A stretch of DNA of 64,000 nt from Mesotaenium endlicherianum (taxonomy: Eukaryota): NCBI GenBank assembly GCA_009602735.1, contig WELA01001243.1, positions 1 through 64,000 of the forward strand. The letters are read 5' to 3'. This document shows, in pieces, positions 1 to 61,919 of the stretch; positions within the stretch are counted from its first letter, which is position 1; each line of letters starts with the position of its first letter. Below the pieces are notes generated by a model, which saw only the letters and a program-made list of their open reading frames with translations, was not told the DNA's origin and did no database searches. The translations under genes and the position numbers were made by a program.

Positions 1-906
1 TTCTCCTGCTGGTTGATGACATCAAACTTCTCATGCAACTTCTCGACAAACTCTACCCACGTAGGGTCACCGAGTTCTCGGGCCTTACGCTCTTATACAC
101 CAGTCTGCGGCACTGCCTTTCAGTAGCGCACCGGTGTGCCTGACCTTCTCGTAATCTTGCAGTTCTGGGTAGTTCTCCAGCCACTGCTCAACATCCGCGA
201 GAAACTTGATCAGGTAATATTTTCTGTTTCCCTCAGGATCATGTTCCTGGGGAGGTTTCGGCTTGGGCTTACTAGGCCCTCGGCCACCACCACTAGTGGT
301 TTGAGACCCCAGTTGGTCTCTGTCCCGGAGTAGGGACATTATGATTCTTTTGTCCTCCTGCTGGGACTGATACATGGTCGCCATTTGCGACTGCATCTGA
401 ACGAACAATGCTCCCAAGTCTACATTTTGGGGTGGTAGATTAGCAAATGCAGCAGCAGCATTGGCATCTACTCGCTGAGTAGTGTCCTCAACAATCCCTC
501 TCGCTCCTGCAGCAGCAATTCCTGCCGCATTCAGCCGGTCACGTATTTGACCTAGGGGTACATTGAGTTGTACGGCAGGAGGTGGGTTCAGAACATTGGC
601 CCTTGATGCCATAAGTTCTTCAACAGTGCGCTCATCAGCTGGCTGTCCTTCTCTCCTTTCGGTATCTTCAGCGGCCTTTGCTACTTGTTCAGCTTCTAAT
701 CTGGCTCTCTCCTCCTCAGCTTGCTGTGCTGCGACTACGGCAATAGCAGCTGCCTCATCTGCAGCCTCTCTAGGTGCAGTATTTGCTACTGCTTCAGAAT
801 AGGTACGGGTTTCCGCTACATGGCTTTCCGCCTGGTTTTCGACATTCTCGTTATCCTGGTTCTCCATGTCTCGGGAGTTGCTAGTTTGAGACCTTGTCCT
901 TACCAT
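1..906 (-). pseudogene. gag: gag of a second, tandem family-A chromovirus copy (frameshifted; runs off the window edge)
   Basis: Near-identical to gag at 7507-8985. GCTTTACTGGAAGG is replaced by TAT near 95-97 (net -11 nt), giving a stop at 85. Gag-homologous sequence continues to base 1. Confidence 0.9.
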
Positions 907-940
907 ACAAAGAAGACTGTGATAACTACTCCGATACGTG

Positions 941-1664
941 TGAAATGAATCGACTTACCAAATAGGCGAGTAACAATTAATAAAGATCTTTATATGAGCA
1001 AGTAATCTTTATGGTATTTTCCGTTAACTGGTTAAACGGCAAAGGACAACACACTAGCAGTGAATAATACTCATAAGTCAGATGCGAGTAAACTAGCATC
1101 AATAATGCAAATCAGTAAACTCATACATAAGCAAGGTTAGAAGACAGTGCGTATGAAACAATGGCTTCTCGCCTTGGATTCAGATCTCTCTCAGTAAGCT
1201 GTACAAGAGAGTTGGCCTCGTTTCCGAATGCCGAACTCGAGAGCAATGCCTAGCATATGTACATGGAATGAGTTTACTGTTCAACGGTCAGTGCGATGGC
1301 ACCGCCTACCCGGGAGTTAACCACGTTGGTAGGACCTCGGTTAACCAAATCCACCGCCATCTCCCATCATCCCGAATAGCCATCCATCATGGGGATGTCA
1401 TCTGGCCATTCATCTAGCATGTCGTACTTAGATGCATATCAAGGCAGTTCGCTGCTACCGAGTACGGAAGTCAGCTGGCTGTCAAAGAATGTGTCAGCAA
1501 GCTGACTTAAGTTGACTTCAGCCTGCTGCTTTTGGCCGAGTCATTAAACTGATAATTATGTAAAGTCCAGCAGACTGACTATTAACTAAAGTTCAGCAGG
1601 CTGAACTTAATTAACTATTATATTTAAATGAATATTATATCCACTAATATACTGATTCATTACA
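941..1664 (-). repeat. Family A LTR (3' LTR of the intact copy, also 5' LTR of the tandem copy)
   Basis: Minus strand TGTAATGAA...TTCATTTCA, preceded by the PPT and followed by a degenerate PBS and another gag. Confidence 0.95.
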
Positions 1665-1676
1665 ATCCCTCCAACT
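1665..1676 (-). promoter_or_regulatory. Polypurine tract (plus-strand primer) of family A
   Basis: AGTTGGAGGGAT directly before the TG of the 3' LTR; same motif at 61188-61199. Confidence 0.8.
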
Positions 1677-1777
1677 TAACTTGTTGTCGCCTCGACAACA
1701 TTAAACTGCAGAAATTTTAAATAAGGGAACTGAACCTGACCAGCCTCCCTTACTGACTGCCTCTTCAGCGTGTCACC

Positions 1778-3454
1778 TTAAGGGGTTGTTCCTGGGGCTT
1801 CAGGGTCAGGAGACGGAGATCTGGACCTAGATCTGGACAGCCCTCTAGGTCTGTCAGCTGGCCTTCTAAAGAACCCTGTTTGCTCTAAAGTTGGCCCTCG
1901 GGGAGAACGGAGGATGGTGGCCTGCTCTTCAACTATTTGGGTGTTGATTCCCACATAGACAGGCATTCCAGTAGGATGCTGAAATACATTGGCTAGAGGT
2001 ACATGCCCCTGAGCGGAGGGGGAGGCTGGCATACCTCTGGCCCACCCGCGTGTCCCTCTTCTGGCACCCCTGTCCTCTGGGGATTTCTGTCTGTGTCTGC
2101 TGCCCAGTACCGTCAGATCAGCTTCTTCCCCTGCTTGGGCAGGTGGGCTGGGGGAGCGAGCGCGGGGTCCAGTTGTCGCCATAACGGGGATCACATTCCA
2201 CACACCTGATCGTGGTTCTTTAGGAAGTGCCACTGCCTGTCCCTGGGTATCCTGAGTACCTGCTGCTGATGCTTCTCCTCTGCCTTGTTCTTCTTCCTCA
2301 TCCTCCTCATCCTCCTCCTCGGAGAGAGTAGGGGTCTCGTCCACTAAGTCGTCCTGCTCCCTAGTAGACATGGAGTAGTCTACCGACCTCCCTTTCTTAG
2401 GGCGCGCTGGAGGTTGCTTGGCCTTCAGCCTACTGATATCTATCCGGCCTGCATTCTTTGCCCATTTGACAAAGGCATGCTTTCCCTTAGAGAAGTACTC
2501 TCTTCCCCTCCTCCTATGTTCCTTGGTCTCTGCATTCATATTGCTCAGGCATCCATTCAGCCTGGGGTCCCAAGGGGCAATGTGAGGTGGTAGGATGAGA
2601 TAGCCGTCTAGGCCATAGTGGAAGTCATCCGGTTGGGCTCGGTCACACTCCTGCTTCTTATTTGTGACGGTCATCCACCTCCAGTCTGTTGGCTGCTGGT
2701 AGTACTGGGGTCCGTGCTCAGCCTTCCTCAGTTTACACGGGAACCAGTGGGGAGAGAACATCTGCTGTCCTGCTTCCCTGGCCAAGTACTCCCAGCTCCT
2801 TCTCTCAACTTCATTGTAAGCTGGCAGGAGTGTGAGGTAGAATACCGTATCCTTAAAGCTATCGGGCCGCATGCTCACCATCCGGATGAGTCTCTGATCT
2901 CCCACTATTCCCGGTATGGGGACCGGCTTGTCCTCTGAATCATCTGCGAGATACCGGGCCTGCTCTGCTGTATAGCCCACCATCTTAGCATAATCTTCGT
3001 AAAGGACCACGCCGGTGTGTGTCTCGATGTACCTGTCCAGTGCTGTAGCTCCTTCCTTCTGTAGCAGTGTTGTCTGTTCCAGCCTGTTGATCTCCTGGGC
3101 TGCCAGCAATGCTTCCTTCAGGTTATCGAAGTTTTGGCCACCCACCACAGTATACCTGTAAGTGGCCAAGCTCTTCTGTCTGTCCGCTTCAATCTTTTTT
3201 CTTTTCTCCTCTTCTGCCGCTGCCGCTTCTTCTTGCTGTTTCTTCTGTCTCTCCTCCTCAGCCTTCCTGAGGTTTTCCGCTTCCTGATCCTTCTTCCTCT
3301 GTGCCTCTTCTGCCGCCTCTTGTTGCTTGCGGACCCTTTCTTGTTCTCTCCTGGTGAGGGACGTCGCCGCCAGCTCCTTCTGGTATTGCTCCATTGTCCT
3401 CCTGGCTTCTTCTGCCTTGCGCTTTCTGTCCTCCTTTTGTGTGGTGGGCGCCAT
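1778..3454 (-). CDS. Extra ORF (ORF3) of family A, unknown function: N-terminal E/K/Q/R coiled coil, central W/Y/P-rich segment, acidic tract, RS/SP-rich tail
   Basis: Open frame 1778-3478, likely start ATG GCG at 3454 (MAPTTQKE). Also intact in the second copy at 59386-61086. Confidence 0.8.
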   Translation of the reverse strand: MAPTTQKEDRKRKAEEARRTMEQYQKELAATSLTRREQERVRKQQEAAEEAQRKKDQEAENLRKAEEERQKKQQEEAAAAEEEKRKKIEADRQKSLATYRYTVVGGQNFDNLKEALLAAQEINRLEQTTLLQKEGATALDRYIETHTGVVLYEDYAKMVGYTAEQARYLADDSEDKPVPIPGIVGDQRLIRMVSMRPDSFKDTVFYLTLLPAYNEVERRSWEYLAREAGQQMFSPHWFPCKLRKAEHGPQYYQQPTDWRWMTVTNKKQECDRAQPDDFHYGLDGYLILPPHIAPWDPRLNGCLSNMNAETKEHRRRGREYFSKGKHAFVKWAKNAGRIDISRLKAKQPPARPKKGRSVDYSMSTREQDDLVDETPTLSEEEDEEDEEEEQGRGEASAAGTQDTQGQAVALPKEPRSGVWNVIPVMATTGPRARSPSPPAQAGEEADLTVLGSRHRQKSPEDRGARRGTRGWARGMPASPSAQGHVPLANVFQHPTGMPVYVGINTQIVEEQATILRSPRGPTLEQTGFFRRPADRPRGLSRSRSRSPSPDPEAPGTTP

Positions 3455-3721
3455 CCTGCACATGTAACCAGGGCACAAGTTAGTAGGATATGGACCTTTG
3501 TCATAGGGATTGCAGGAAGTATGTTAGTATTTAGTATAGTGGCTTCGCTGCTGTTTACCTTACAGGATGATTGCTAAAAGTTGACGTAGTTGCGATGCGC
3601 TACACATAAACGTATGAGTGTGTTTTTATCGCTCTCGCTCACTAACTGTCATATATTTTCCCCTCCAACTTAAATGGAGACAGGACCGCCTGTCACCTTC
3701 CCGTGTCAACTGAAATGACAG

Positions 3722-6700
3722 TTATGGAGGGACTCCAGCGGCCCGAAGGTGGAACCGTGTCAACGCCCCTTTGGCATTGGTCAAGTGGTCCTTAAACTCC
3801 CAAGTGTCCCCAGAGGCATCGTAACCCTTCCATCGAATGAGGTATTTCATGACATATTTAGACGATCGACGGACCGAGCGAGCGTCTAAAATCTCATCGA
3901 CCTCATATTCCTCAGGGTCGCCGTCCCGGACAGCGGGGACCGGTCCCGGTTGGACAGGGAACCGACCTGTGAACAGTGTATCACCTTTGATGTACGGTTC
4001 CAGGAAGGAGACATTAAAGACCGGGTGCCCCTTGTATTCAGCTGACATGTTCAGTTTGTAAGCATTCTGACCGACACGACGGACCACCGAATATGGACCG
4101 ACCCAGACAGGGCCAAGCTTTTTCTTGACCACACCAGGGAGGTACAGGTGCTGAGAATGCAGTTTGACTAAATCCCCCTTGGAAAATGTCAGTTCCCGAC
4201 GGTGTTGATTAGCGTATTTTTGTTGGTTTTCTTGGGCCGTGTGCAAGTTTCGTTGGACTTCTGACAGGGTGTCAGCAAACTCCTGAGTTAACTGGAGGGA
4301 GACCGGGTTGTCAATCCCTTCAGGGTGAGTTAAAGATTCCCCTAGCACATCTAGAGGAGACTTAGGGACTCTACCCAGGCTGAGTTCAAAAGGAGTTTTG
4401 CCCGTTGACGCGTGCACCGCACTGTTGACCGCAAACTGAATTTGAGGCAACAGGTCATCCCAATTATCTTGTTTTTGGTTAATATATGCTCTCAGCACCT
4501 CCTGCAGAACTCGGTTAGTTCTTTCAGTCTGCCCATCAGTCTGAGGGTGGTTTGCTGTGCTGAGCAGCTGTTTGACTCCCATTAACCCCATTAAAGCTCT
4601 CCAGAACTTAGAGGTGAATTTTGAGTCTCTGTCTGAGATGATATTAGAAGGGAGCCCATGTTGGCATACTACATGGTTGTAAAACTGTCTCGCTGTTTCG
4701 AGTGCAGTCACTTTGACAGTTGTGGGGATAAAAATGACCATTTTTGTCAGTTTATCCACGACTACCAGTATTGAATCATGCCCGTTGGCAGTTCTTGGTA
4801 GTGAGACCACCCAGTCCATGGATATAGTTTCCCAGCGTCCCGCTGGGATGGGTAGCGGTTGCAAGAGACCTCCGGGTGGTGTGTGCCGAGACTTATTTCT
4901 CTGACACTGGTCACAGGACTTGACATATTTCAAGACCTCCCGGGGTAACCCCTCCCAATGATAATGTTTTGCCAGTTTGCCAACAGTTTTGGCCTGCCCC
5001 AAATGTCCACCCAGGAGACTGTCATGAGCTTGACTCAGTAAGAGAGACCTTATTTCCAAGTTATTAGGAATGACCAGCTTCAGCCTGCCTGAAGTGGTTT
5101 CAGTCACCCAGACCCCTCCCTTAAGCTTATACCCGAGTGCAGTAGCACGACACACACCAGTAGTGGGGCTGGGCTCAAATGTTGGGTCAGAAAGGTAGGC
5201 TTTCCTAAGTTGTTCAAGGAAGGACTTTTTCACCTTTAGTGAAGTGAGTGCACACAGGACTTTATCTACAGCATGCTGACTAAAGTTCCTTTCTTGCAAG
5301 TCAGGTCTTCTAGAGAGTGCATCAGCAGGATTCAACTTCCCTGGTTTGTAGTCGATCTGGACTTGGAACTGCTCCAGCATCTGGCTCCAGCGGTTCTCCC
5401 TCCTCGACAGCTTGGACTTCTTCTGAAAGTGGGTCAGAGCTAGATGATCTGTAATCACCTTAAAAGCTTTACCATGTAAGTATGCTCTCCACTGTTTGAG
5501 TACATGAATGATAGCTAGCAGCTCTTTATCATGCACTGAGTAATTAATCTCCGCTGGATTAAATTTCATAGACTCATACAACACAGGATGCCACTCCTGC
5601 CGTACCTTACCATCCTTTGTGGTTTTGTCAGCAGGCTGCAACAAAATAGCACCCATGGCAAAATCAGAGGCATCAGTAACCACCTGCACCGGTTTGCTGG
5701 GGTCATACACGGCTAGCACTGGGGCAGAACAAAGGGCATCTTTAAGGGTCTGGAAGGCAGCCTGCTGCTCTTCCCCCCACACATACCCGATGTCTTTCTT
5801 AGTAAGGTCAGTCAGTTTACTGGCCTTTGTGGAATAATTCTCAATAAATCTCCTATAGTAGTTAGCCAACCCGAGGAAGGATCTAACTTCAGAGACAGAC
5901 TGTGGTACTGGCCAGTCCCTTATGGTCTGGACTTTCTTAGGATCCACACTGATGCCCTCTTTACTGACAACGTGGCCTAAGAATTCAATACTTTCCTTAA
6001 AGAAATCACACTTGCTCATTTTAGCATACAAGTGATTTTTCCGCAGAGTGTCCAGCACTTTCTTTAAGTGTTCAGTGTGCTGAGCTTCATCTTTAGAGAA
6101 AATTAAAATATCATCCAGGAAAACTTGCACAAACTTATCCAAATAAGGTCTGAAAATGTCATTCATAGCACCCATAAAGGTAGCAGGAGCATTAGTCAGT
6201 CCAAATGGCATCACGTTGAACTCATAGTGTCCATAACGTGTGCGGAAAGCAGTCTTGTGTTCATCCCCCTCAGCAATTCTGATTTGATGATAACCACTCT
6301 TGAGATCTATCTTACTGAACACCTTAGCGCCAGACAGGGTATCAAGCAAGTCCTCGATTCTGGGTAAAGCATACTTGTTCTTTACTGTAATTCTGTTCAG
6401 GGCTCTGTAATCCACACACATCCGCATACTGCCATCCTTTTTCTTAACAAATAGGATAGGTGCGCCGTACGGTGATTTACTGGGAGAAATGTAACCATTT
6501 TCCTCCAGCTCTGCAATCTGTGTTTTCAACTCCTCGCTCTCCAAATAAGACAAGCCATAAGTGCGTTGCCAGGGTGGCTGGCTACCAGGTAATAGATCAA
6601 TCCTATGATCTACTTCCCTTTTAGGGGGTAGTCCTGGAGGCATGTTAAACACATCAGTGTACTGAGCAACAATTTTTGCAGCAGTAGGGTGCTCCGGAGG

Positions 6701-7552
6701 GCTTACCTTTTTCTCAACCACTTCTTCAGGTTGAGGAGGTACCTCTCTTAGCAGCAGACAGAACATTCTGTCTTCCTTCTGGTTCCAGCTTTTGACGAAC
6801 TCCATTGCATTCAGCAACTTGCATCCTTCTGGAAGCCTCTTCTTTTCCTTCATTTGCCATCCACACAGGACAAGAGGAAGAGCACTGGTGGGTGCCAAGT
6901 CAGTCTGCCCATCACTGGCTCCTCTCACTTTAACTGTACCTCTGCTCCAACACACTTCAGCTTGATGTCTATTAAGCCAGGACCTGCCTAGCACGAGATC
7001 ATAAAAGCCAGTGTTGAGTACCTCAAATGTAAGCGTTTCAGTTAGAACTGCAATGCCAGAACCTAACTGGACCTCAATAGGCTTGGTTATAACTCCTCCC
7101 GGGATACTTGAGGCATCTCCAAGGAATATTTTTCTATTCCCTTGGGTGACAGTAGGCAGCCTTAGCCGCTTAACTAAGTCCTTGTGAATAAAAGTATGTG
7201 ACGCCCCTCCGTCAACAAATGCCCTCACCTTCCTACCTGCAATCATGCAATGCAGTAGGATAGGGGGGACTGTCTTTTCCTGACTTTCGCATTGTTCTCC
7301 TGACGTAGCAAAGAAATGTTGGACATCAGGTGGAACAAGAGCATCCAGAGTGTGCACTCTCTGGACGTCTATATTACTGATGGTCTCCTTTATCTGTTTG
7401 TCAGGCATGCATAGTGAATCCAGTTCAGCAGGACCCATAATACCTGCTACGAGGGCAGCTAGTGACGACTCACTATCTCTAGCATCCTCACAGTCAGTAG
7501 ACTGGATTACTGACTGTTGCTGTCTTTTAAAGGCTGGTCTTTTCTCTCGACC
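3722..7552 (-). CDS. pol: Pol polyprotein: aspartic protease, RT, RNase H, integrase with GPY/F and chromodomain
   Basis: FVDGGASH (PR); [24 protein letters not shown] (RT); TDASD (RH); H..GH..C..C plus DDE (IN); [27 protein letters not shown] (chromodomain). The frame is open upstream of the ATG at 7438 and overlaps the gag end in the -1 frame. Confidence 0.97.
7490..7531 (-). promoter_or_regulatory. -1 programmed ribosomal frameshift signal (gag-pol)
   Basis: T TTA AAA heptamer in gag frame, 7-nt spacer, perfect 10-bp stem ACAGTCAGTA / TACTGACTGT with an 8-nt loop. Confidence 0.8.
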
Positions 7553-8985
7553 TTAGGCAGGTGCTTGACCGGACACTGTTCTCTGTAGTGGCCTTTCTGC
7601 TGACAATGGTAGCAAGTAGATTTTGCTGAGGCTGGTCTCGGCTTAGTCCTACCACCACCCCTTCCATAGCCACCTCGAGAGGGACCACCTCTACCTCTAG
7701 ACTGAATAGCATTGTACTCATACTCATATTCATCACCCTGATTATCCTCAGCCTGGTCTCCTTCAACTGCATTGTAGGAACCGTGGGGCTTTTTGACAAT
7801 CTTAGACACCAAAGCGTTACTCTGGCGCTTGTGATTGAACTGCTGCTGATCCCAGGCGTCAGCATCCTGGATCAAGTCAGCCAGTTTCTCATACTTTTTC
7901 TCAGCAAAATGACCAGAGACCTCGGATTTCAAGCCATACCTGAAGTATGCTATCCTATACCGTTCTGGCAAATCAGGCTGCTTCATCATGTTCTCTTGGA
8001 ACTTTTGAGCAAACTCAGCAACTGAAGTGGTCTGCTTCAGTGTCAGGGAGATCATCGCATAGATAGCTTTCTCCTGCTGGTTGATGACATCAAACTTCTC
8101 ATGCAACTTCTCGACAAACTCTACCCACGTAGGGTCACCGAGTTGCCGAGCCTTACGCTCTTCCTTCCAGTAAAGCCACCAGTCTGCGGCACTGCCTTTC
8201 AGTAGCGCACCGGTGTGCCTGACCTTCTCGTAATCTTGCAGTTCTGGGTAGTTCTCCAGCCACTGCTCAACATCCGCGAGAAACTTGATCAGGTAATATT
8301 TTCTGTTTCCCTCAGGATCATAGTCCTGGGGAGGTTTCGGCTTGGGCTTACTAGGCCCTCGGCCACCACCACTAGTGGTGTGAGACCCCAGTTGGTCTCT
8401 GTCCCGGAGTAGGGACATTATGATTCTTTTGTCCTCCTGCTGGGACTGATACATGGTCGCCATTTGCGACTGCATCTGAACGAACAATGCTCCCAAGTCT
8501 ACATTTTGGGGTGGTAGATTAGCAAATGCAGCAGCAGCATTGGCATCTACTCGCTGAGTAGTGTCCTCAACAATCCCTCTTGCTCCTGCAGCAGCAATTC
8601 CTGCCGCATTCAGCCGGTCACGTATTTGACCTAGGGGTACATTGAGTTGTACGGCAGGAGGTGGGTTCAGAACATTGGCCCTTGATGCCATAAGTTCTTC
8701 AACAGTGCGCTCGTCAGCTGGCTGTCCTTCCCTCCTTTGTATATCTTCAGCGGCCTTTGCTACTTGTTCAGCTTCTAGTCTGGCTATCTCCTCCTCAGCT
8801 TGCTGAGCTGCGACTGAGGCAATAGCAGCTGCCTCATCTGCAGCCTCCCTAGCTGCAGTATCCGCTACTGCTTCCGAATAGGTACGGTTTCCCGCTACAT
8901 GGCTTTCCGCCTGGTTTTCGACATTCTCGTTATCCTGGTTCTCCATGTCTCGGGAGTTGCTAGTTTGAGACCTTGTCCTTACCAT
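7507..8985 (-). CDS. gag: Gag with retrotransposon capsid region, RGG tract and CCHC zinc knuckle
   Basis: 492 aa; [46 protein letters not shown]. Confidence 0.95.
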
Positions 8986-9006
8986 ACAAAGAAGACTGTG
9001 ATAACT

Positions 9007-9018
9007 GCTCCGATACCA
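9007..9018 (-). promoter_or_regulatory. Primer binding site, initiator tRNA-Met-like
   Basis: TGGTATCGGAGC 1 nt after the LTR's CA; plant canonical is TGGTATCAGAGC. Confidence 0.8.
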
Positions 9019-9019
9019 C

Positions 9020-9738
9020 TGAAATGAATCGACTTACCAAATAGGCGATTAACAATTAATAAAGATCTTTATATCAGCAAGTAATCTTTATGGTATTTCC
9101 GTTAACTAGTTAAACGGCAAAGGACAATACACTAGCAGTGAATAATACTCGTAAGTCAAATGCGAGTAAACTAGCATCAATAATGCAAATCAGTAAACTC
9201 ATACATAAGCAAGGTTAGAAGACAGTGCGTATCAATGGCTTCTCGCCTTGGATTCAGATCGCTCTCAGTAAGCTGTACGAGAGAGTTGGCCTTGTTTCCA
9301 AATGCCGAACTCGAGAGCAATGCCTAGCATATGTACATGGAATGAGTTTACTGTTCAACGGTCAGTGCGATGGCACCGCCTACCCGGGAGTTAACCACGT
9401 TGGTAGGACCTCGGTTAACCAAATCCACCGCCATCTCCCATCATCCCGAATCGCCATCCATCATAGGGATGTCATTTGGCGATTCATCTAGCATACTACA
9501 CTTAGATGCATCTCGAGGCAGTTCGCTGCTACCTAGTACGGAAGTCAGCTGGCTGTCAAAGAATGGGTCAGCAAGCTGACTTATATGGACTTCAGCCTGT
9601 TGCTTCCGGCTGAGTCATTAAACTAATAATTATGTAAAGTCCAGCAGACTGACTATTAACTAAAGTTCAGCAGGCTGAACTTATTTAACTATTATATTTG
9701 AATGAATATTATATTTAATAATATACTGATTCATGACA
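9020..9738 (-). repeat. Family A 5' LTR
   Basis: Minus strand TGTCATGAA...TTCATTTCA, homologous to 941-1664. Confidence 0.95.
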
Positions 9739-11744
9739 ATTGCATGCCGCGAACATTCGAATACTTAGTACTTTTGTTTTTAACATAGCACGCCATAATT
9801 AAGTTAGAAGAAACACATAGTTCTCTCTTGTGCACAGTTTGTCGCACCTTCCTCTTGAATTAAAGTGTAGTATTCAACATAGGAGGTAGTCTTTTGAGGC
9901 TACCTAGAATGTAACGTCTGGTTATGGCCGATTTCTCTCAGTGTCCCCGCAGAAACTGGCGCTATTCATTATTATACTGCAAGCTGCTTGTGAGTACAGC
10001 AAGCACATGGGGTTCTTAACTCTTCTAATGCACATAATGTTGTATAAGTGTCTGCGGAGATTGTAGTAGCTGATTGAGTGCTTGGGGGTACGTTCAATCT
10101 TTAGTGAACAGGAGGATGACGAAGGTACTAGAGGCATCTTCAGAACTGTTCTTATTGCTTTGAGGGGTCATAATATCTTCACATTTTATTGAGATTAATT
10201 TTTTTCACATGTGGAATGTTATGAAGAGGGTCATGTATAACCTCACTAGATTTCAAAGCTATTACACAAGTTGTACACTCTGGGGGTTGCCTGCCATGAC
10301 TGGTTAAATGACACCTAGAATGGTACTTTTGCGCTTTATCAACATATTTCAAGTGTTACTAAGAACTTGAGTAACTCAACCGATACCGAACCAAAAGGTG
10401 TCAAATTTGGACAGTAGATTCATTGGACCATAATACAACATATAAACCAGATCCCTTGCAATTTCAACAAAATTTGCGCGTTTTGCGGAGGCAACAGCTT
10501 CAAGTGTGCGAAAGTGGACACGTGTCAAACTTTGAGAGGCCATAACTTACATTTCTTTTACAATAACAACTAAATTTTTGCTGATTCAGGTTTATTAGTG
10601 TTACCTGAAATCATATAAAATTTCAGGTCATTTGAAGCAGTCTTGAGCATGGAGTGGTGAGCACAATGACCCTTGTGGAGGGCACTAAATATAGAAATTC
10701 TCCAATGTACACAAATTTGTCAATTTTCATTGAGTTTGCAACTGCTGTAAGAATAATGTATATTTCAATCTGAAACTTTGCCATAGTGTGACAAACACAT
10801 TCATCTTACCATTGAAAAAAACTTGGAGCAATTCCGTTTAAACTGCCAGGTTTTACGCTAAAAAGTACCTATGTGTTCAAAAAAGGGCATATTGGGGTGC
10901 ATGTGTAATTCCACTTATTGACCCATGCATGTTATAATGAGGTGTTCATTCATATAACAACATTTTTCTGCAGGCAAGCATGATAGTTTGGTGACATGAA
11001 GAAAAGGCATTGCGATGGTAGCTATATAGCAAAAAAAAACATAGATAGGTGTCAACATTAGTCTACAGATACAATTTGTCTTCTCATTTAGTATTTGACT
11101 TGAAAACATGTACAGCATACATGATGCACGTGCTTGTCAAGTGTACCCACAAGAAAAAGAGGATATTTAAGATGTGCCACACCAAAATCACCAAAGGAGT
11201 TAGAATTGAGGATCTCTCACATCGACACTAATCAATTGAATGGCCAGGGTTGATAGTATAAGCATTATGGAATTTGAATACATTGATTGAGAATTCTACC
11301 AACCACAAGAAAAATGGTGGTCATAAACTTGACAGAAGAATCTTATAAGCCACACTCTGAATTCCTTTAGGACCCTACAAAGTAAGTGCTTCTAAATAAT
11401 TCTTATCTTATGTCTAGGAAAGTTTGGAAGTATCTAGTGACATCACCAGAAGCAAGCCGAAGACTTCATCAAATAGTGAGTCTCTTTGAACCAATGTTAT
11501 GTGCCATTTAAGTATGTTCCTACCTCTTGCAAAAACATCACACCAAACTGCCTGCCATACATGGTACATATACCCTTAAAGTGGAGCTACAATTGTACGT
11601 GCTCCTTTCAGAATCCAACACATATTTTTATACACATACAAACCACATTATACACAGCTACATAAATACAGAAGATGGAACACAATGACACATTGACATC
11701 CCGGCAAGAGTAGACCAACCCTCTTACAGTCGAGCCGTTGCACT

Positions 11745-29600: not shown

Positions 29601-30515
29601 ATAACGTGCTGAGATGAAACAACGACATAACCTCCAAGTAAGCTGATGACGCTGTGCATCAACCACTTGTTTGCTGGCTATGACCGTATAACCAACATGC
29701 TCCCTGGTGCTGATGAAGCAGAAATGGTCCAGTTTCTTTGTGCTGCAGGTACGAGTATGACTGGAATAGGGCTCCCTTGTGGTGGAGTGGCTTTCAAACA
29801 GACACGCCCATGTACTTATTCCTGAAGAACATCATCAGCTTGAGGAAGCTATACAAGGTAAAACATTGTACGATGTCAAAGCCAGTACGAGGATGCAGGC
29901 AAATCAAAGTGACCGCCATTCAGCAACACATTTGACTTTGCCTGGTGCTAGTGGTGCTTTTTGCTAGTTAGGTAGGTACATATTTAGCTATGAAAACAAT
30001 GTGAGAGCAATATCGCAGATAGGGGGGAAAGGGGGGGGGAGGGTCCTTGTTCTCTACAGTGTTTTAAATTCATGCTCGGATACCCAGTCAGGTCTTTTTA
30101 TGCACTTTCTCCAATCTTCCCCGACTGCGGAGCATAATCACTCCCTGGCTTTGTGGTGGCTTTAAGTTTCCAGGAGTAGCTTGCTAAAGAGGTAAGCAAC
30201 TTCACTGCTGCTCTGATGCAGGTGTGGAGGTATGAGCAAGTTGAATCTTTCAGTTCGGTGGACATGTACGCCTTCTATAGGGGTCCTGCTCTTGTGGCTA
30301 TTACGAACCAGAAGTACAGGATAAGCTACACCTTGCCCCAGTCAGCACATCCATTTCCGCCAAAAGTGACTATTTGTAATCTGCTTATAGCCGGCTACGA
30401 TTGCCAGGTTGTAAAGCCCGACGGATCGCTGGATATCATATTGGAAGCAGGGGAGCAAAAGATATGGGTTCCTTACAGTAGAGCTCAAAATGATGTGTTG
30501 GCGATTGCTGATTGA
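26644..30515 (+). CDS. Secreted alpha-amylase, GH13 fungal/Taka-amylase type, copy 1 (7 exons)
   Basis: Signal peptide; [86 protein letters not shown]. Confidence 0.92.
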
Positions 30516-33368: not shown

Positions 33369-33429
<61 letters not shown>

Positions 33430-44441: not shown

Positions 44442-45160
44442 TGTAATGAATCAGTATATTGGTTGATATAATATTCATTTAAATATAACAGTTAAATAAG
44501 TTCAGCCTGCTGAACTCTAGTTAAGAATCAGTCTGCTGGACTTTATATTTAATATCAGTTTAATGACTCAGCCGAAAGCAGCAGGCTGAAGTCAGCTTAA
44601 GCCAGCTTGCTGACACATTCTTTGACAGCCAGCTGACTTCCGTACTCGGTAGCAGCGAACTGCCTCGATATGCATCTAAGTGTGGTATGCTAGATGAATG
44701 GCCACATGACATCCCTATGATGGATGGCGATTTGGGATGATGGGAGATGGCGGTGGATTTGGTTAACCGAGGTCCTACCAACGTGGTTAACTCTCGGGTA
44801 GGCGGTGCCATCGCACTGGCCGTTGAACAGTAAACTCATTCCATGTACATATGCTAGGCATTGCTCTCGAGTTCGGCATTTGGAAACGAGGCCAACTCTC
44901 TTGTACAGCTAACTGAGAGAGAACTGAATCCAAGGCGAGAAGCCATTGATACGCACTGTCTTCTAACCTTGCTTATGTATGAGTTTACCGATTGCATTAT
45001 TGATGCTAGTTTACTCGCATTTGATTTACGAGTATTGTTCACTGCTAGTGTGTTGTCCTTTGCCGTTTAATCAGTTAACGGAAATACCATAAAGATTACT
45101 TGCTGATATAAAGATCTTTATTAATTGTAAATCGTCTATTTGGTAAGTCGATTCATTTCA
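44442..45160 (+). mobile_element. Solo LTR of family A
   Basis: TGTAATGAA...TTCATTTCA flanked by the 5-bp TSD AGCGA (44437-44441, 45161-45165). Confidence 0.96.
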
Positions 45161-52910: not shown

Positions 52911-53622
52911 TGTAATGAATCAGTATATTAGTGGATATAATATTCATTTAAATATAATAGTTAATTAAGTTCAGCCTGCTAAACTTCAGTCAATAGTCAG
53001 TCTGCTGGACTTTACCTAATTATCAGTTTAATGACTCAGCCAGAAGCAGCAGGCTGAAGTCCATATAAGTCAGCTTGCTGACCCATTCTTTGACAGCCAG
53101 CTGACTTCCGTACTCGGTAGCAGCAAACTGCCTTGACATACACCTAAGCACGATATGCTAGATGAATGGCCAGATGACATCCCTATGATGGATGGCGATT
53201 CGGGATGATGGGAGATGGCGGTGGATTTGGTTAACCGAGGTCCTACCAACGTGGTTAACTCCCGGGTAGGCAGTGCCATCGCACTGACCGTTGAACAGTA
53301 AACTCATTCCATGTACATATGCTAGGCATTGCTCTCGAGTTCGGCATTCGGAAACGAGGCCAACTCTCTTGTACAGCTTACTGAGAGAGATCTGAATCCA
53401 AGGCGAGAAGCCATTGATACGCACTGTCTTCTAACATTGCTTATGTATGAGTTTACTGATTTGCATCATTGATGCTAGTTTACTCTCATTTGACTTACGA
53501 GTATTATTCCCTGCTAGTGTATTGTCCTTTGCCGTTTAACCAGTTATACCATAAAGATTACTTGCTGATATAAAGATATTTTTTAATTGTTAATCGCCTA
53601 TTTGGTAAGTCGATTCATTTCA
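52911..53622 (+). repeat. Family A 5' LTR
   Basis: TGTAATGAA...TTCATTTCA followed by the PBS. Confidence 0.95.
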
Positions 53623-53656
53623 GTGGTATCGAAGCAGTTTTCACAGTCTTCTTTGC

Positions 53657-55135
53657 ATGGTAAGAACAAGGTCTCAAACTAGCAACTCCCGAGACATGGA
53701 GAACCAGGATAACGAGAATGTCAAAAACCAGGCGGAAAGCCATGTAGCGGGAACCCGTACCTATTCTGAAGCAGTAGCCGATACTGCAGCTAGGGAGGCT
53801 GCAGATGAGGCAGCGGCTATTACCGCAGTCGCAGCTCAGCAAGCTGAGGAGGAGATAGCCAGACTAGAAGCTGAACAAGTAGCAAAGGCCGCTGAATATA
53901 TACAAAGGAGGGAAGGACAGCCAGCTGACGAGCGCACTGTTGAAGAACTTATGGCATCAAGGGCCAATGTTCTGAACCCACCTCCTGCCGTACAACTCAA
54001 TGTACCCCTAGGTCAAATACGTGACCGGCTGAATGCGGCAGGAATTGCTGCTGCAGGAGCAAGAGGGATTGTTGAGGACACTACTCAGCGAGTAGATGCC
54101 AATGCTGCTGCTGCATTTGCTAATCTACCACCCCAAAATGTAGACTTGGGAGCATTGTTCGTTCAGATGCAGTCGCAAATGGCGACCATGTATCAGTCCC
54201 AGCAGGAGGACAAAAGAATCATAATGTCCCTACTCCGGGACAGAGACCAACTGGGGTCTCACACCACTAGTGGTGGTGGCCGAGGGCCTAGTAAGCCCAA
54301 GCCGAAACCTCCCCAGGACTATGATCCTGAGGGAAACAGAAAATATTACCTGATCAAGTTTCTCGCGGATGTTGAGCAGTGGCTGGAGAACTACCCAGAA
54401 CTGCAAGATTACGAGAAGGTCAGGCACACCGGTGCGCTACTGAAAGGCAGTGCCGCAGACTGGTGGCTTTACTGGAGGGAAGAGCGTAAGGCTCGGGAAC
54501 TCGGTGACCCTACGTGGGTAGAGTTTGTCGAGAAGTTGCATGAGAAGTTTGATGTCATCAACCAGCAGGAGAAAGCTATCTATGCGATGATCTCCCTGAC
54601 ACTGAAGCAGACCACTTCAGTTGCTGAGTTTGCTCAAAAGTTCCAAGAGAACATGATGAAGCAGCCTGATTTGCCAGAACGGTATAGGATAGCATACTTC
54701 AGGTATGGCTTGAAATCCGAGGTCTCTGGTCATTTTGCTGAGAAAAAGTATGAGAAACTGGCTGACTTGATCCAGGATGCTGACGCCTGGGATCAGCAGC
54801 AGTTCAATCACAAGCGCCAGAGTAACGCTTTGGTGTCTAAGATTGTCAAAAAGCCCCACGGTTCCTACAATGCAGTTGAAGGAGACCAGGCTGAGGATAA
54901 TCAGGGTGATGAATATGAGTATGAGTACAATGCTATTCAGTCTAGAGGTAGAGGTGGTCCCTCTCGAGGTGGCTATGGAAGGGGTGGTGGTAGGACTAAG
55001 CCGAGACCAGCCTCAGCAAAATCTACTTGCTACCATTGTCAGCAGAAAGGCCACTACAGAGAACAGTGTCCGGTCAAGCACCTGCCTAAGGTCGAGAGAA
55101 AAGACCAGCCTTTAAAAGACAGCAACAGTCAGTAA
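53657..55135 (+). CDS. gag: Gag (intact, 492 aa)
   Basis: Near-identical to 7507-8985; CCHC knuckle. Confidence 0.93.
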
Positions 55136-58100
55136 TCCAGTCTACTGACTGTGAGGATGCTAGAGATAGTGAGTCGTCACTAGCTGCCCTCGTAGCAGGT
55201 ATTATGGGTCCTGCTGAACTGGATTCACTATGCATGCCTGACAAACAGATAAAGGAGACCATCAGTAATATAGACGTCCAGAGAGTGCACACTCTGGATG
55301 CTCTTGTTCCACCTGATGTCCAACATTTCTTTGCTACGTCAGGAGAACAATGCGAAAGTCAGGAAAAGACAGTCCCCCCTATCCTACTGCATTGCATGAT
55401 TGCAGGTAGGAAGGTGAGGGCATTTGTTGACGGAGGGGCGTCACATACTTTTATCCACAAGGACTTAGTTAAGCGGCTAAGGCTGCCTACTGTCACCCAA
55501 GGGAATAGAAAAATATTCCTTGGAGATGCCTCAAGTATCCCGGGAGGAGTTATAACCAAGCCTATTGAGGTCCAGTTAGGTTCTGGCATTGCAGTTCTAA
55601 CTGAAACGCTTACATTTGAGGTACTCAACACTGGCTTTTATGATCTCGTGCTAGGCAGGTCCTGGCTTAATAGACATCAAGCTGAAGTGTGTTGGAGCAG
55701 AGGTACAGTTAAAGTGAGAGGAGCCAGTGATGGGCAAACTGACTTGGCACCCACCAGTGCTCTTCCTCTTGTCCTGTGTGGATGGCAAATGAAGGAGAAG
55801 AAGAGGCTTCCAGAAGGATGCAAGTTGCTGACTGCAATGGAGTTCGTCAAAAGCTGGAACCAGAAGGAAGACAGAATGTTCTGTCTGCTGCTAAGAGAGG
55901 TACCTCCACAACCTGGAGAAGTGGTTGAGAAAAAGGTACACCCTCCGGAGCACCCTACTGCTGCAAACATTGTTGCTCAGTACACGGATGTGTTTAATAT
56001 GCCTCCAGGACTACCCCCTAAGCGGGAAGTAGATCATAGGATTGATCTATTACCTGGTAGCCAGCCACCCTGGCAACGCACGTATGGCTTGTCTTATTTG
56101 GAGAGTGAGGAGTTGAAAACACAGATTGCAGAGCTGGAGGAAAATGGTTACATTTCTCCCAGTAAATCACCGTACGGCGCACCTATCCTATTTGTTAAGA
56201 AAAAGGATGGCAGTATGCGGATGTGTGTGGATTACAGAGCCCTGAACAGAATTACAGTAAAGAACAAGTATGCTTTACCCAGAATCGAGGACTTGCTTGA
56301 CACCCTGTCTGGCGCTTAAGTGTTCAGTAAGATAGATCTCAAGAGTGGTTATCATCAAATCAGAATTGCTGAGGGGGATGAAAACAAGACTGCTTTCCGC
56401 ACACGTTATGGACACTATGAGTTCATGCCATTTGGACTGACTAATGCTCCTGCTACCTTCATGGGTGCTATGAATGACATTTTTAGACCTTATTTGGATA
56501 AGTTTGTGCAAGTTTTCCTGGATAATATTTTAATTTTCTCTAAAGATGAAGCTCAGCACACTGAACACTTAAAAACAGTCCTGGACACTCTGCGTAAAAA
56601 TCACTTATATACTAAAATGAGCAAGTGTGATTACTTTAAGGAAAGTATTGAATTCTTAGGCCACGTTGTCAGTAAGGAGGGCATCAGTGTGGATCCTAAG
56701 AAAGTCCAGATCATAAGGGACTGGCCAGTACCACAGTCTGTCTCTGAAGTTAGATCCTTCCTCGGGTTGGCTAACTACTATAGGAGATTTATTGAGAATT
56801 ATTCCACAAAGGCCAGTAAACTGACTGACCTTACTAAGAAAGACATCGGGTATGTGTGGGGGGAAGAGCAGCAGGCTGCCTTCCAGACCCTTAAAGATGC
56901 CCTTTGTTCTGCCCCAGTGCTAGCCGTGTATGACTCCAGCAAACCGGTGCAGGTGGTTACTGATGCCTCTGACTTTGCCATGGGTGCTATTTTGTTGCAG
57001 CCTGCTGACAAAACCACAAAGGATGGTAAGGTACGGCAGGAGTGGCATCCTGTGNNNNNNNNNNNNCTGTATGAGTCTATGAAATTTAANCTAGCGGAGA
57101 TTAATACTCAGTGCATGATAAAGAGCTGCTAGCTATCATTCATGTACTCAAACAGTGGAGAGCATACTTACATGGTAAAGCTTTTAAGGTGATTACAGAT
57201 CATCTAGCTCTGACCCACTTTCAGAAGAAGTCCAAGCTGTCGAGGAGGGAGAACCGCTGGAGCCAGATGCTGGAGCAGTTCCAAGTCCAGATCGACTACA
57301 AACCAGGGAAGTTGAATCCTGCTGATGCACTCTCTAGAAGACCTGACTTGCAAGAAAGGAACTTTAGTCAGCATGCTGTAGATAAAGTCCTGTGTGCACT
57401 CACTTCACTAAAGGTGAAAAAGTCCTTCCTTGAACAACTTAGGAAAGCCTACCTTTCTGACCCAACATTTGAGCCCAGCCCCACTACTGGTGTGTGTCGT
57501 GCTACTGCACTCGGGTATAAGCTTAAGGGAGGGGTCTGGGTGACTGAAACCACTTCAGGCAGGCTGAAGCTGGTCATTCCTAATAACTTGGAAATAAGGT
57601 CTCTCTTACTGAGTCAAGCTCATGCCAGTCTCCTGGGTGGACATTTGGGGCAGGCCAAAACTGTTGGCAAACTGGCAAAACATTATCATTGGGAGGGGTT
57701 ACCCCGGGAGGTCTTGAAATATGTCAAGTCCTGTGACCAGTGTCAGAGAAATAAGTCTCGGCACACACCACCTGGAGGTCTCTTGCAACCGCTGCCCATC
57801 CCAGCTGGACGCTGGGAAACTATATCCATGGACTGGGTGGTCTCACCACCAAGAACTGCCAACGGGCATGATTCCAAACTGGTAGTCATGGATAAACTGA
57901 CAAAAATGGTCATTTTTATCCCCACAACTGTCAAAGTGACTGCACTCGAAACAGCGAGACAGTTTTACAACCATGTAGTATGCCAACATGGGCTCCCTTC
58001 TAATATCATCTCAGACAGAGACTCAAAATTCACCTCTAAGTTCTGGAGAGCTTTAATGGGGTTAATGGGAGTCAAACAGCTGCTCAGCACAGCAAACCAC

Positions 58101-58925
58101 CCTCAGACTGATGGGCAGACTGAAAGAACTAACCGAGTTCTGCAAGAGGTGCTGAGAGCATATATTAACCAAAAACAAGATAATTGGGATGACCTGTTGC
58201 CTCAAATTCAGTTTGCGGTCAACAGTGCGGTGCACGCGTCAACGGGCAAAACTCCTTTTGAACTCAGCCTGGGTAGAGTCCCTAAGTCTCCTCTAGATGT
58301 GCTAGGGGAATCTTTAACTCACCCTGAAGGGATTGACAACCCGGTCTCCCTCCAGTTAACTCAGGAGTTTGCCGACACCATGTCAGAAGTCCAACGCAAC
58401 TTGCAAACGGCCCAACAAAACCAACAAAAATACGCTACTCAACACCGTCGGGAACTGACATTTTCCAAGGGGGATTTAGTCAAACTGCATTCTCAGCACC
58501 TGTACCTCCCTGGTGTGGTCAAGAAAAAGCTTGGCCCTGTCTGGGTCGGTCCGTATTCGGTGGTCCGTCGTGTCGGTCAGAATGCTTACAAACTGAACAT
58601 GTCAGCTGAATACAAGGGGCACCCGGTCTTTAATGTCTCCTTCCTGGAACCGTACATCAAAGGTGATACACTGTTCACAGGTCGGTTCCCTGTCCAACCG
58701 GGACCTGTCCCCGCTGTCCGGGACGGCGACCCTGAGGAATATGAGGTCGATGAGATTTTAGACGCTCGCTCGGTCCGTCGATCGTCTAAATATGTCATGA
58801 AATACCTCATTCGATGGAAGGGTTACGATGCCTCTGGGGACACTTGGGAGTTTAAGGACCACTTGACCAATGCCAAAGGGGCGTTGACACGGTTCCACCT
58901 TCGGGCCGCTGGAGTCCCTCCATAA
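55090..58925 (+). pseudogene. pol: Pol of the nested family A copy, disrupted
   Basis: Stop at 56317-56319, FLDD changed to FLDN, 6-nt deletion in RT, and a frameshift near 57105 (next to Ns, so possibly an assembly error). Chromodomain intact. Confidence 0.88.
55111..55152 (+). promoter_or_regulatory. -1 frameshift signal (second copy)
   Basis: TTTAAAA at 55111-55117; stem 55125-55134 / 55143-55152. Confidence 0.8.
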
Positions 58926-59409
58926 CTGTCATTTCAGTTGACACGGGAAGGTGACAGGCGGTCCTGTCTCCATTTAAGTTGGAGGGGAAAATATATGACA
59001 GTTAGTGAGCGAGAGCGATAAAAGAACAGTTACGTGAACCCTAAGTGTCAGCATAGTGACAGAGGGGACAGCCTGGCCCACATAAAGCACCTTGAGCTGA
59101 AGGAAAAAGGGCCTCGCATAACACTACATCACTTAACTCACCCTAAAACACACTCATACGTTTATGTGTAGCGCATCCCAACTACGTCAACTTTTAGCAA
59201 TCATCCTGGAAGGTAAACAGCAGCGAAGCCACTATACTAATACTAACATACTTCCTGCAATCCCTATGACAAAGTTCCGTATCCTACTAACTTGTGCCCT
59301 GGTTACATGTGCAGGATGGCGCCCACCACACAAAAGGTAACATACTTCCTGCAATCCCTATGACAAAGTTCCATATCCTACTAACTTGTGCCCTGGTTAC
59401 ATGTGCTGG

Positions 59410-61086
59410 ATGGCGCCCACCACACAAAAGGAGGACAGAAAGCGCAAGGCAGAAGAAGCCAGGAGGACTATGGAACAATACCAGAAGGAGCTGGCGGCGA
59501 CGTCCCTCACCAGGAGAGAACAAGAAAGGGTCCGCAAACAACAAGAGGCGGCAGAAGAGGCACAGAGGAAGAAGGATCAGGAAGCGAAAAACCTCAGGAA
59601 AGTTGAGGAGGAGAGACAGAAGAAACAGCAAGAAGAAGCGGCAGCGGCAGAAGAGGAGAAAAGGAAAAAGCTTGAAGCGGACAGACAGAAGAGCTTGGCC
59701 ACTTACAGGTATACTGTGGTGGGTGGCCAGAACTTTGATAACCTGAAGGAAGCATTGCTGGCAGCCCAGGAGATCAACAGGCTGGAACAGACAACACTGC
59801 TACAGAAGGAAGGAGCTACAGCACTGGACAGGTACATCGAGACACACACCGGCGTGGTCCTTTACGAAGATTATGCTAAGATGGTGGGCTATACAGCAGA
59901 GCAGGCCCGGTATCTCGCAGATGATTCAGAGGACAAGCCGGTCCCCATACCGGGAATAGTGGGAGATCAGAGACTCATCCGGATGGTGAGCATGCGGCCC
60001 GATAGCTTTAAGGATACGGTATTCTACCTCACACTCCTGCCAGCTTACAATGAAGTTGAGAGAAGGAGCTGGGAGTACTTGGCCAGGGAAGCAGGACAGC
60101 AGATGTTCTCTCCCCACTGGTTCCCGTGTAAACTGAGGAAGGCTGAGCACGGACCCCAGTACTACCAGCAGCCAACAGACTGGAGGTGGATGACCGTCAC
60201 AAATAAGAAGCAGGAGTGTGACCGAGCCCAACCGGATGACTTCCACTATGGCCTAGACGGCTATCTCATCCTACCACCTCACATTGCCCCTTGGGACCCC
60301 AGGCTGAATGGATGCCTGAGCAATATGAATGCAGAGACCAAGGAACATAGGAGGAGGGGAAGAGAGTACTTCTCTAAGGGAAAGCATGCCTTTGTCAAAT
60401 GGGCAAAGAATGCAGGCCGGATAGATATCAGTAGGCTGAAGGCCAAGCAACCTCCAGCGCGCCCTAAGAAAGGGAGGTCGGTAGACTACTCCATGTCTAC
60501 TAGGGAGCAGGACGACTTAGTGGACGAGACCCCTACTCTCTCCGAGGAGGAGGATGAGGAGGATGAGGAAGAAGAACAAGGCAGAGGAGAAGCATCAGCA
60601 GCAGGTACTCAGGATACCCAGGGACAGGCAGTGGCACTTCCTAAAGAACCACGATCAGGTGTGTGGAATGTGATCCCCGTTATGGCGACAACTGGACCCC
60701 GCGCTCGCTCCCCCAGCCCACCTGCCCAAGCAGGGGAAGAAGCTGATCTGACTGTACTGGGCAGCAGACACAGACAGAAATCCCCAGAGGACAGGGGTGC
60801 CAGAAGAGGGACACGCGGGTGGGCCAGAGGTATGCCAGCCTCCCCCTCCGCTCAGGGGCATGTACCTCTAGCCAATGTATTTCAGCATCCTACTGGAATG
60901 CCTGTCTATGTGGGAATCAACACCCAAGTGGTTGAAGAGCAGGCCACCATCCACCGTTCTCCTCGAGGGCCAACTTTAGAGCAAACAGGGTCCTTTAGAA
61001 GGCCAGCTGACAGACCTAGAGGGCTGTCCAGATCTAGGTCCAGATCTCCGTCTCCTGACCCTGAAGCCCCAGGAACAACCCCTTAA
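59410..61086 (+). CDS. Extra ORF (ORF3) of family A, second copy, intact
   Basis: Same length as 1778-3478 with only a handful of amino-acid changes. Confidence 0.78.
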   Translation: MAPTTQKEDRKRKAEEARRTMEQYQKELAATSLTRREQERVRKQQEAAEEAQRKKDQEAKNLRKVEEERQKKQQEEAAAAEEEKRKKLEADRQKSLATYRYTVVGGQNFDNLKEALLAAQEINRLEQTTLLQKEGATALDRYIETHTGVVLYEDYAKMVGYTAEQARYLADDSEDKPVPIPGIVGDQRLIRMVSMRPDSFKDTVFYLTLLPAYNEVERRSWEYLAREAGQQMFSPHWFPCKLRKAEHGPQYYQQPTDWRWMTVTNKKQECDRAQPDDFHYGLDGYLILPPHIAPWDPRLNGCLSNMNAETKEHRRRGREYFSKGKHAFVKWAKNAGRIDISRLKAKQPPARPKKGRSVDYSMSTREQDDLVDETPTLSEEEDEEDEEEEQGRGEASAAGTQDTQGQAVALPKEPRSGVWNVIPVMATTGPRARSPSPPAQAGEEADLTVLGSRHRQKSPEDRGARRGTRGWARGMPASPSAQGHVPLANVFQHPTGMPVYVGINTQVVEEQATIHRSPRGPTLEQTGSFRRPADRPRGLSRSRSRSPSPDPEAPGTTP

Positions 61087-61199
61087 GGTGACACGCTGAA
61101 GAGGCAGTCAGTAAGGGAGGCTGGTCAGGTTCAGTTCCCTTATTTAAAATTTCTGCAGTTTAATGTTGTCGAGGCGACAACAAGTTAAGTTGGAGGGAT

Positions 61200-61919
61200 T
61201 GTAATGAATCAGTATATTAGTGGATATAATATTCATTTAAATATAATAGTTAATTACGTTCAGCCTGCTGAACTTCAGTCAATAGTCAATCTGCTGGACT
61301 TTACATAATTATCAGTTTATTGACTCAGCCGAAAGCAGCAGGCTGAAGTCCATATAAGTCAGCTTGCTGACCCATTCTTTGACAGCCAGCTGACTTCCAT
61401 AATCGGTAGCAGCAAACTGCCTTGACATACACCTAAGCACGATATGCTAGATTGAATGGCAAGATGACATCCCTATGATGGATGGCGATTCGGGATGATG
61501 GGAGATGGCGGTGGATTTGGTTAACCGAGGTCCTACCAACGTGGTTAACTCCCGGGTAGGCGGTGCCATCGCACTGACCGTTGAACAGTAAACTCATTCC
61601 ATGTACATATGCTAGGCATTGCTCTTGAGTTCGGCATTCGGAAACGAGGCCAACTCTCTTGTACAGCTTACTGAGAGAGATCTGAATCCAAGGCGAGAAG
61701 CCATTGATACGCACTGTCTTCTAACCTTGCTTATGTATGAGTTTACTGATTTGCATCATTGATGCTAGTTTACTCGCATTTGACTTACGAGTATTATTCC
61801 CTGCTAGTGTATTGTCCTTTGCCGTTTAACCAGTTAACGGAAATACCATAAAGATTACTTGCTGATATAAAGATCTTTATTACTTGTTAATTGCCTATTT
61901 GGTAAGTCGATTCATTTCA
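61200..61919 (+). repeat. Family A 3' LTR
   Basis: After the PPT; TG...CA; followed by TSD CTATG. Confidence 0.95.

Follow-up and report, generated by a model that had tools for sequence, protein, structure and literature searches.

The origin and function of the thousands of extra ORFs catalogued in plant LTR retrotransposons are an open question. A third, antisense ORF is said to be carried by the Chlamydomonas element REM1. In the REXdb survey extra ORFs of at least 250 codons were recorded in 3372 Ty3/gypsy elements and fell into 314 unrelated groups (PMC6317226, in part). Frames of at least 250 codons that lie outside the polyprotein, on the same strand and between pol and the 3' LTR, and that hold no tandem repeat, were termed eORF-3'F (PMC6317226, in part). 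Sense ORFs at this 3' position were reported in 18% of 782 Tekay chromoviruses, while none was given for Chlamyvir (44 elements), Tcn1, Galadriel, Reina or CRM (PMC6317226 supplement 3); they also occur in SIRE (74%), TatII and Retand (PMC6317226 and PMC7264820, both in part). Drawings of fungal chromoviruses published in 2010 include an "add. ORF" without a known function (PMC2864245, in part). A review covers env-like ORFs that are spliced and antisense ORFs that are nuclear and have a promoter of their own, and describes gene 23 of maize Grande as nuclear with its own promoter (PMC7264820, in part). Sunflower Tekay elements carry 5' ORFs with nuclear signals and long helices (PMC11728184, in part). 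In foamy viruses an internal promoter drives production of Tas, a protein that activates the LTR (PMC6669543, in part), and the VANC proteins of VANDAL DNA transposons are anti-silencing proteins (PMC13547354, in part). The accessible parts of PMC2774666 and PMC6673714 held nothing on extra ORFs of chromoviruses. No description of the element reported below was found in the literature covered on Mesotaenium elements and chromovirus accessory genes, which excluded subscription papers such as Steinbauerova 2011.

The window (the whole 64-kb stretch of Mesotaenium DNA that was analyzed) contains two copies of one LTR element of 8.8–9.0 kb, copy 1 at 940-9740 on the minus strand and copy 2 on the plus strand, together with a solo LTR of the same family and the gag of a third, tandem unit (Table 1). 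The LTRs begin with TG and end with CA, and 5-nt target duplications flank copy 2 and the solo LTR. The pol product has the order protease, RT, RNase H, integrase, followed by SH3 and a chromodomain at the integrase C-terminus (PF00385, E 2e-8, residues 1178-1230) in which aromatic residues occupy three positions that we take to be those of the cage. This set of domains makes the element a Ty3/gypsy chromovirus. Its nearest full-length pol relatives were about 51% identical. The pol frame is open for 38 codons upstream of the pol ATG and overlaps gag in the -1 frame. The primer-binding site of copy 1 resembles one for tRNA-Met. The gag/pol overlap fits Tcn1, but the tRNA-type primer site does not (PMC6317226 supplement 3). 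In copy 2, codon 372 of pol is a stop (56317), and the gene also has indels, part of which lie at or near N runs at 57055-57090. Copy 1 belongs to a tandem array with a common LTR (1-1664, minus strand), and three bases are altered in the primer-binding site of the next unit. The two LTRs of a copy differ by 5.2% in copy 1 and 2.5% in copy 2. Observed/expected CpG in the element was 0.4–0.5, which would fit a history of methylation.

Table 1. Positions of the features of the element family in the window.
Feature	Position	Strand	Remarks
Copy 1 5' LTR	9020..9740	-	721 nt, TG...CA
Primer-binding site	9007..9018	-	starts TGG, one base after the LTR
gag (Ty3 capsid, CCHC knuckle), 492 aa	7507..8985	-	
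Candidate -1 frameshift site TTTAAAA in gag/pol overlap	7525..7531	-	10-pair stem downstream; putative function
pol, protease to chromodomain, 1238 aa from ATG	3722..7438	-	
Internal polypurine tract, 13-nt word	3661..3673	-	about 50 nt after the pol stop; identical to the word before the 3' LTR
Spacer and upstream exon; candidate internal promoter	3559..3660	-	copy 2 spacer 124 nt longer
GT-AG intron, 103 nt	3456..3558	-	predicted, then skipped in one X8 contig
ORF3, 558 aa	1778..3454	-	start ATG 3454
3' polypurine tract	1667..1679	-	
Copy 1 3' LTR, common to the next tandem unit	940..1664	-	
gag of the next tandem unit	1..906	-	cut by the window end
Copy 2, whole element, pol broken	52911..61919	+	LTRs 52911-53622 and 61200-61919; target duplication CTATG
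Copy 2 counterpart of the ORF3 leader intron, 102 nt	59213..59314	+	
Copy 2 candidate new intron, 94 nt	59337..59430	+	from tandem duplication over the ORF3 start; sequence only
Copy 2 ORF3	59410..61086	+	552 of 558 residues identical to copy 1
Solo LTR, same family	44442..45160	+	target duplication AGCGA

The original prediction described a sense ORF of about 560 aa in the env position, intact in two copies. Both frames were recovered without interruption (1778-3478, minus strand; 59386-61086, plus strand; 567 codons including the stop), and all of the quoted motifs were present. From stop to stop the frame, here called ORF3, spans 581 codons; three null models, run with 1000 shuffles each, never gave a length of 561 (maxima 311–358). 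With 558 codons ORF3 falls within the eORF-3'F definition. That such a gene is atypical for chromoviruses, as had been stated, holds for Chlamyvir, Tcn1, Galadriel, Reina and CRM but not for Tekay, with its 18% of 782 elements (PMC6317226), nor for the fungal elements drawn with an additional ORF (PMC2864245, in part). The start had been placed at TTG 3478; since both this codon and the first ATG (3463) lie inside the 3456-3558 intron, the start moves to ATG 3454, which is the likely initiation codon of a 558-aa product.

The spacer upstream of ORF3 contains a donor, two TACTAAC branch words (3479-3485 and 3523-3529) and an acceptor one base before ATG 3454. TACTAAC occurs five times in the 64 kb, every time in an ORF3 leader. 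One X8 contig (depth 9.3) skips exactly 3456-3558, with CT..AC on the plus strand, at a donor and an acceptor that had been predicted beforehand. This single contig has a shorter side of 27 nt, a likeness of 80 and a joint type flagged for caution, and whether X8 is RNA or DNA is unrecorded; if real, the joint implies splicing in vivo, be it from RNA or from an intron-less DNA copy. Because the intron carries an out-of-frame ATG (3504) opening a 128-codon frame that overlaps the ORF3 start, in addition to the in-frame ATG 3463, its removal would act as an on-switch for ORF3. At least about 24 nt of the upstream exon match in the spliced contig, and no LTR-to-ORF3 joint was present among the 10 joints listed (X1, X4, X5 and X9; X8 covered the ORF3 region and not the LTR), so that a transcription start in the spacer would be the simplest reading. 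No such start was seen in the aligned runs, although the leader intron, the one splice observed and a local one, lends an internal promoter indirect support; nor was a full-length ORF3 transcript seen in any RNA run examined. Depth was zero over 1670-3559 in X9 (6 in 100 of the run read) and 0–3 over ORF3 in X15. Coverage of ORF3 in X12 came mainly from a variant covering 2032-2400 and continuing into other sequence at 2032.

Eighteen X12 RNA reads carry this ORF3 variant, and the point of departure at 2032 is no more than 3 nt from a donor-like AG/GT. The variant may be a piece of ORF3 that was exonised or domesticated at another place in the genome. The polyA reads of X9 lie mostly in one orientation over the integrase end (3660-4900) and in opposite orientations over the two halves of the LTR (9020-9740), a pattern that suggests host transcripts running into element fragments and solo LTRs.

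The leader of copy 2 is altered by a 94-nt tandem duplication across the ORF3 start (59244-59431, plus strand), the junction of which makes a new donor. The second unit has 2 differences in 94 nt, one of which removes the acceptor AG, and the next AG after the branch word sits exactly 94 nt from the new donor. Loss of the acceptor would have shifted the ORF3 frame. Removal of the 94-nt segment leaves a 558-codon frame without stops; unremoved, the first ATG stops after 15 codons. The segment fits a candidate newborn intron arising by duplication, a mode of intron gain described in PMC2891723 (in part). The second ATG, at 59410, would offer another route to ORF3 in this copy.

The predicted protein is laid out as a charged helix (residues 7-92), an aromatic-rich core (about 96-350), a basic motif, an acidic tract (about 375-395) and a Pro/Ser/Arg tail that ends in RS and SP repeats, with three RS pairs and 10 SP/TP sites. 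The N-terminal part had been described as a charged coiled coil, and this description was abandoned: hydrophobic residues (Ala included) occupied the a/d positions at a frequency of at most 0.35 in every heptad register, and residues 7-92 contain 7 bulky hydrophobic residues in 86. The score for opposite charges at i+3/i+4 was 40, which was reached in 0 of 10000 shuffles, and the segment is better read as a putative single charged alpha-helix. The claim of a probably folded core likewise gained no support, the single-sequence structure models attaining only pLDDT 34.5 and 36.0. A PWWP-like reading of the PHWFPC motif was tried and found no support in Pfam. Basic motifs were located at 84 (KRKK) and 353 (KKGR), with two bipartite-type patterns, and make a nuclear role a plausible and fairly probable one. 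As had been proposed, no membrane stretch was detected (highest 19-residue Kyte-Doolittle mean, 0.73) and no signal peptide, the latter judged from the charged N-terminus.

Selection on ORF3, which the original prediction had set as its own test, was found to be purifying. Between copies 1 and 2, pS was 0.024 and pN 0.006, values that rest on 9 and 8 changes (10 and 7 when a doubly changed codon was split) and gave p of 0.001–0.013. The corresponding pS/pN values for pol were 0.044/0.006 and 0.023/0.006, and the pN of ORF3 was the same as that of gag and pol. Sequencing runs were also aligned over 1765-3700, where 40 of 121 variant places were listed. Two of the 40 lay outside ORF3 and were dropped, and four seen only in X12 (two synonymous, two not) were set aside. 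The remaining 34 X5/X8 variants in ORF3 were distributed 7/4/23 over the three codon positions, and 21 were synonymous (p 1e-6 to 1.3e-4 for a transition bias of 1–8; ratio about 0.18–0.27); this test and the between-copy comparison are not independent, several X5/X8 variants being copy 2 alleles. It had also been argued that ORF3 remained open even though pol of copy 2 was broken. The disruption of pol was confirmed, but because the copies are about 98% identical the open frame beside it is weak evidence by itself, and the synonymous excess is the real evidence.

An ORF3 variant about 83% identical aligns as far as 1784-1787, in the last codons, and then leaves the window sequence. One contig (record 15) lacks 2 nt at 3425 and 1 nt at 3289, 45 codons apart, and the downstream frame is restored. 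This compensated frameshift swaps residues 10-55, half of the helix, in a common X5/X8 variant; both other frames are open there, and the X5 depth was unequal at the two deletions (13.4 vs 22.8). A diverged X8 contig (record 9) is 10 nt longer over 2181-2808 and is thus either out of frame or misaligned at its end. Some copies are probably dead. Taken as a whole, ORF3 is very probably a real, selected, non-envelope accessory gene.

Searches for relatives of ORF3 were negative throughout. A word search yielded none among 1829 candidates (lengths 308-982 only; the collection includes Mesen1 proteins), and an exhaustive profile search none among 1.84 billion representatives. None of 78 candidate stretches in metagenome contigs and none of 5 in viral contigs held ORF3. 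No Pfam family scored above the cut-off, the best match to the core being Obc1_C (E 0.002, below the cut-off), and there was no Pfam match to the known eORF domains (plant mobile domain, Transposase_28, Athila ORF1). The best PDB match had an E of 0.98; NCBIfam gave none, PHROGs gave E of 0.19 or worse, all Atlas scores were under 0.9, and an Rfam search gave nothing. An integrase-anchored synteny search returned three short, distant loci, none with similarity to ORF3, and the leader-intron pattern found no match in viral contigs. The orphan status is partly a sampling effect, since the nearest full-length pol is only about 51% identical and the neighbours are poorly sampled.

The 13-nt polypurine word of the 3' tract has one further occurrence in each copy, about 50 nt downstream of the pol stop, and none elsewhere; a short hairpin precedes it each time. 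In five of the seven runs aligned (X1, X5, X8, X12 and X15) contigs or reads leave the window sequence at 3660, directly behind this internal tract; what follows on the element strand is two bases and then TG, as expected of an LTR. Diverged, longer spacers were also present, with a departure at 3626 resembling copy 2. The sequences departing at 3660 may represent sister elements without ORF3. The internal tract is likely the ancestral end of the internal region, with the cassette added downstream of it.

At a probability of roughly 0.4 we favor the reading, by analogy with known accessory factors, that ORF3 encodes a nuclear factor, made from a spliced message of its own, which acts in trans to activate or de-silence the element. 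The observed basis is the open frame, purifying selection, the missing membrane stretch and the absence of a detectable homologue. The cassette would have been inserted downstream of the ancestral polypurine tract, in the start of the former 3' LTR, and the second tract would now define the LTR. Because the third cistron would not be readable from genomic RNA, a promoter in the spacer behind the internal tract would be the simplest source of the message. Removal of the leader intron at GT-AG, seen once, would delete the out-of-frame ATG and leave ATG 3454 as the start. The basic signals would direct the protein to the nucleus, where the core might recognize element DNA or chromatin, and the acidic tract and rigid helix might engage histones or co-factors, so that host silencing would be countered or the LTR activated in trans. 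The database searches returned no DNA- or chromatin-binding homologue, domain or fold for ORF3, and no evidence separates anti-silencing from trans-activation or from a role in splicing or export, all of which had been suggested in the original prediction.

RS/SP repeats and single charged helices are common in splicing factors, and ORF3 combines an Arg-rich tail of this composition with such a putative helix. It is possible, though only about half as probable as the favored reading, that ORF3 works at the RNA level in the manner of Rev or an SR protein, restraining splicing or aiding export and packaging of the intron-keeping genomic RNA; a consensus intron must stay in packaged RNA to be inherited, and both copies in the window have kept it. 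Against such a role stand the low number of RS pairs and the lack of any RNA-binding domain found; loss of the leader intron would moreover be harmless to gag and pol, which leaves little need for a Rev-like switch, and the intron-less X8 contig may be a DNA copy. A slightly smaller weight is given to the capture of a host gene, or of part of another mobile element, by read-through from the old 3' end, with selection for a role that helps the host or is unrelated to replication. An intron and a position behind an intact-looking earlier polypurine tract would be expected after 3' transduction or template switch, the departures at 3660 fall just after that tract, and GC at third codon positions is higher in ORF3 (0.57) than in gag (0.50) and pol (0.48). 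No host-type homologue, however, appeared in the 1.84 billion representatives or in the collection with Mesen1 proteins, CpG depletion in ORF3 equals that of pol (0.4), which indicates long residence in the element, and the selection extends over many copies of the element.

ORF3 could also be an adaptor that provides the pre-integration complex with nuclear import or target tethering beside the chromodomain, a role to which its basic nuclear signals and its long, rigid helix would be suited and which has been proposed for plant extra ORFs (PMC7264820, in part); we regard this as unlikely, given that integrase already has a chromodomain, that ORF3 is separate from Pol and that the interaction is hypothetical. 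An envelope-like or cell-to-cell movement protein would agree with the env position and orientation, with an acceptor immediately upstream of the start, the arrangement of spliced env messages, and with a donor-like word in the LTR at 9032. This alternative is very improbable and is largely refuted by the predicted protein, as the original prediction had anticipated: besides the low hydropathy maximum there is no N-glycosylation sequon and only 1% Cys in the core, the joints listed include none from the LTR, and the host is a walled unicell. Least probable of all, and refuted as far as the two selection tests reach, is a neutral frame carried along by a young element. The near identity of the window copies, the poor RNA coverage and the frameshifts in some variants of other runs would be compatible with it, but the synonymous excess appears in both comparisons, the length exceeds that in all 3000 shuffles, and the diverged variant is similar only as far as the stop codon.

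A more specific form of the trans-activator reading is a long shot. The word TGACAG occurs four times in the first 260 nt of the copy 2 spacer (58922-59181, plus strand; 0.21 expected), and 0 of 120 real tiles have three; the word was chosen after the fact, and some hexamer occurs four times in 115 of 2000 shuffles. A 30-nt stretch of the X1 variant has three, but the matching X5/X8 variant has only one. The spacing of the copy 2 words differs from that of ZYRE in Chlamydomonas (PMC4889651). Conceivably, a promoter derived from the old LTR start, with this KNOX/BELL-type cluster, would fire in the zygote, and the spliced message would yield an activator of a new family that turns the element on in the only diploid cell of the life cycle. 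If true, an algal retrotransposon would have independently built a control unit like that of complex retroviruses.

Several other features were observed in the window. A decayed gypsy element (46036-52910 and 61920 to about 63700, plus strand) is interrupted in its RNase H region by copy 2 and has, between protease and RT, a C5 cytosine methyltransferase (PF00145, E 1.6e-18, 48444-49403). A 399-codon frame before its RT (50956-52155, plus strand) had no Pfam match. Repeats at 43178-43934 and 63424-64000 flank this element in swapped order. It resembles KnitGypsy-Dnmt3 of Klebsormidium, which was described with DIRS-like repeats (PMC5890265), and would extend that type to the Zygnematophyceae. 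The region 26644-36465 (plus strand) contains two tandem intron-rich genes, about 73% identical. In their motifs, the first exons resemble secreted alpha-amylases. The window also contains a host exon (41618-41995) that matches a protein labelled jgi/Mesen1 at 100% identity.

ORF3 leaves the kind of element unchanged and is not an envelope; it probably sits in a part of the chromovirus tree for which the REXdb survey gives none. It is a young, intact and selected example of an extra ORF, and its host alga can be cultured, has been sequenced and belongs to the sister group of land plants. The trace of ORF3 acquisition behind the old polypurine tract and the likely on-switch, removal of the leader intron, make origin and expression directly testable. 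Among known systems, plant eORF-3'F (aORF-3S) genes have in common with ORF3 the position, the orientation, a length above 250 codons, the lack of a shared domain and an unknown function; ORF3 differs in its zygnematophyte host, its own leader intron, the second polypurine tract upstream and the absence of any sequence similarity found. The env-like plant extra ORFs have a membrane stretch, whereas ORF3 has none. The fungal chromodomain Gypsy elements with an "add. ORF" likewise join a chromovirus to an extra gene, in another host kingdom and as likened by a figure legend (PMC2864245, in part). Grande gene 23 and the sunflower Tekay 5' aORF, as far as the source excerpts describe them, resemble ORF3 in nuclear signals, long helices and disordered parts, but the former is antisense in a non-chromovirus and the latter lies 5' of gag, whereas ORF3 is sense and 3' of pol. 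Judged from the accessible parts of the sources, foamy virus Tas/Bet offers a model of how a 3' accessory gene may work, although it belongs to a vertebrate retrovirus with env and has no sequence link, and the promoter and activation are only proposed for ORF3. On the same partial basis VANC provides a model of a nuclear transposon factor acting against silencing, but in a DNA transposon and with a MAIN-related fold, whereas ORF3 has no such Pfam match. What is new here is the leader intron, skipped in one contig, the cassette behind a second polypurine tract, the putative single charged helix and the missing membrane stretch.
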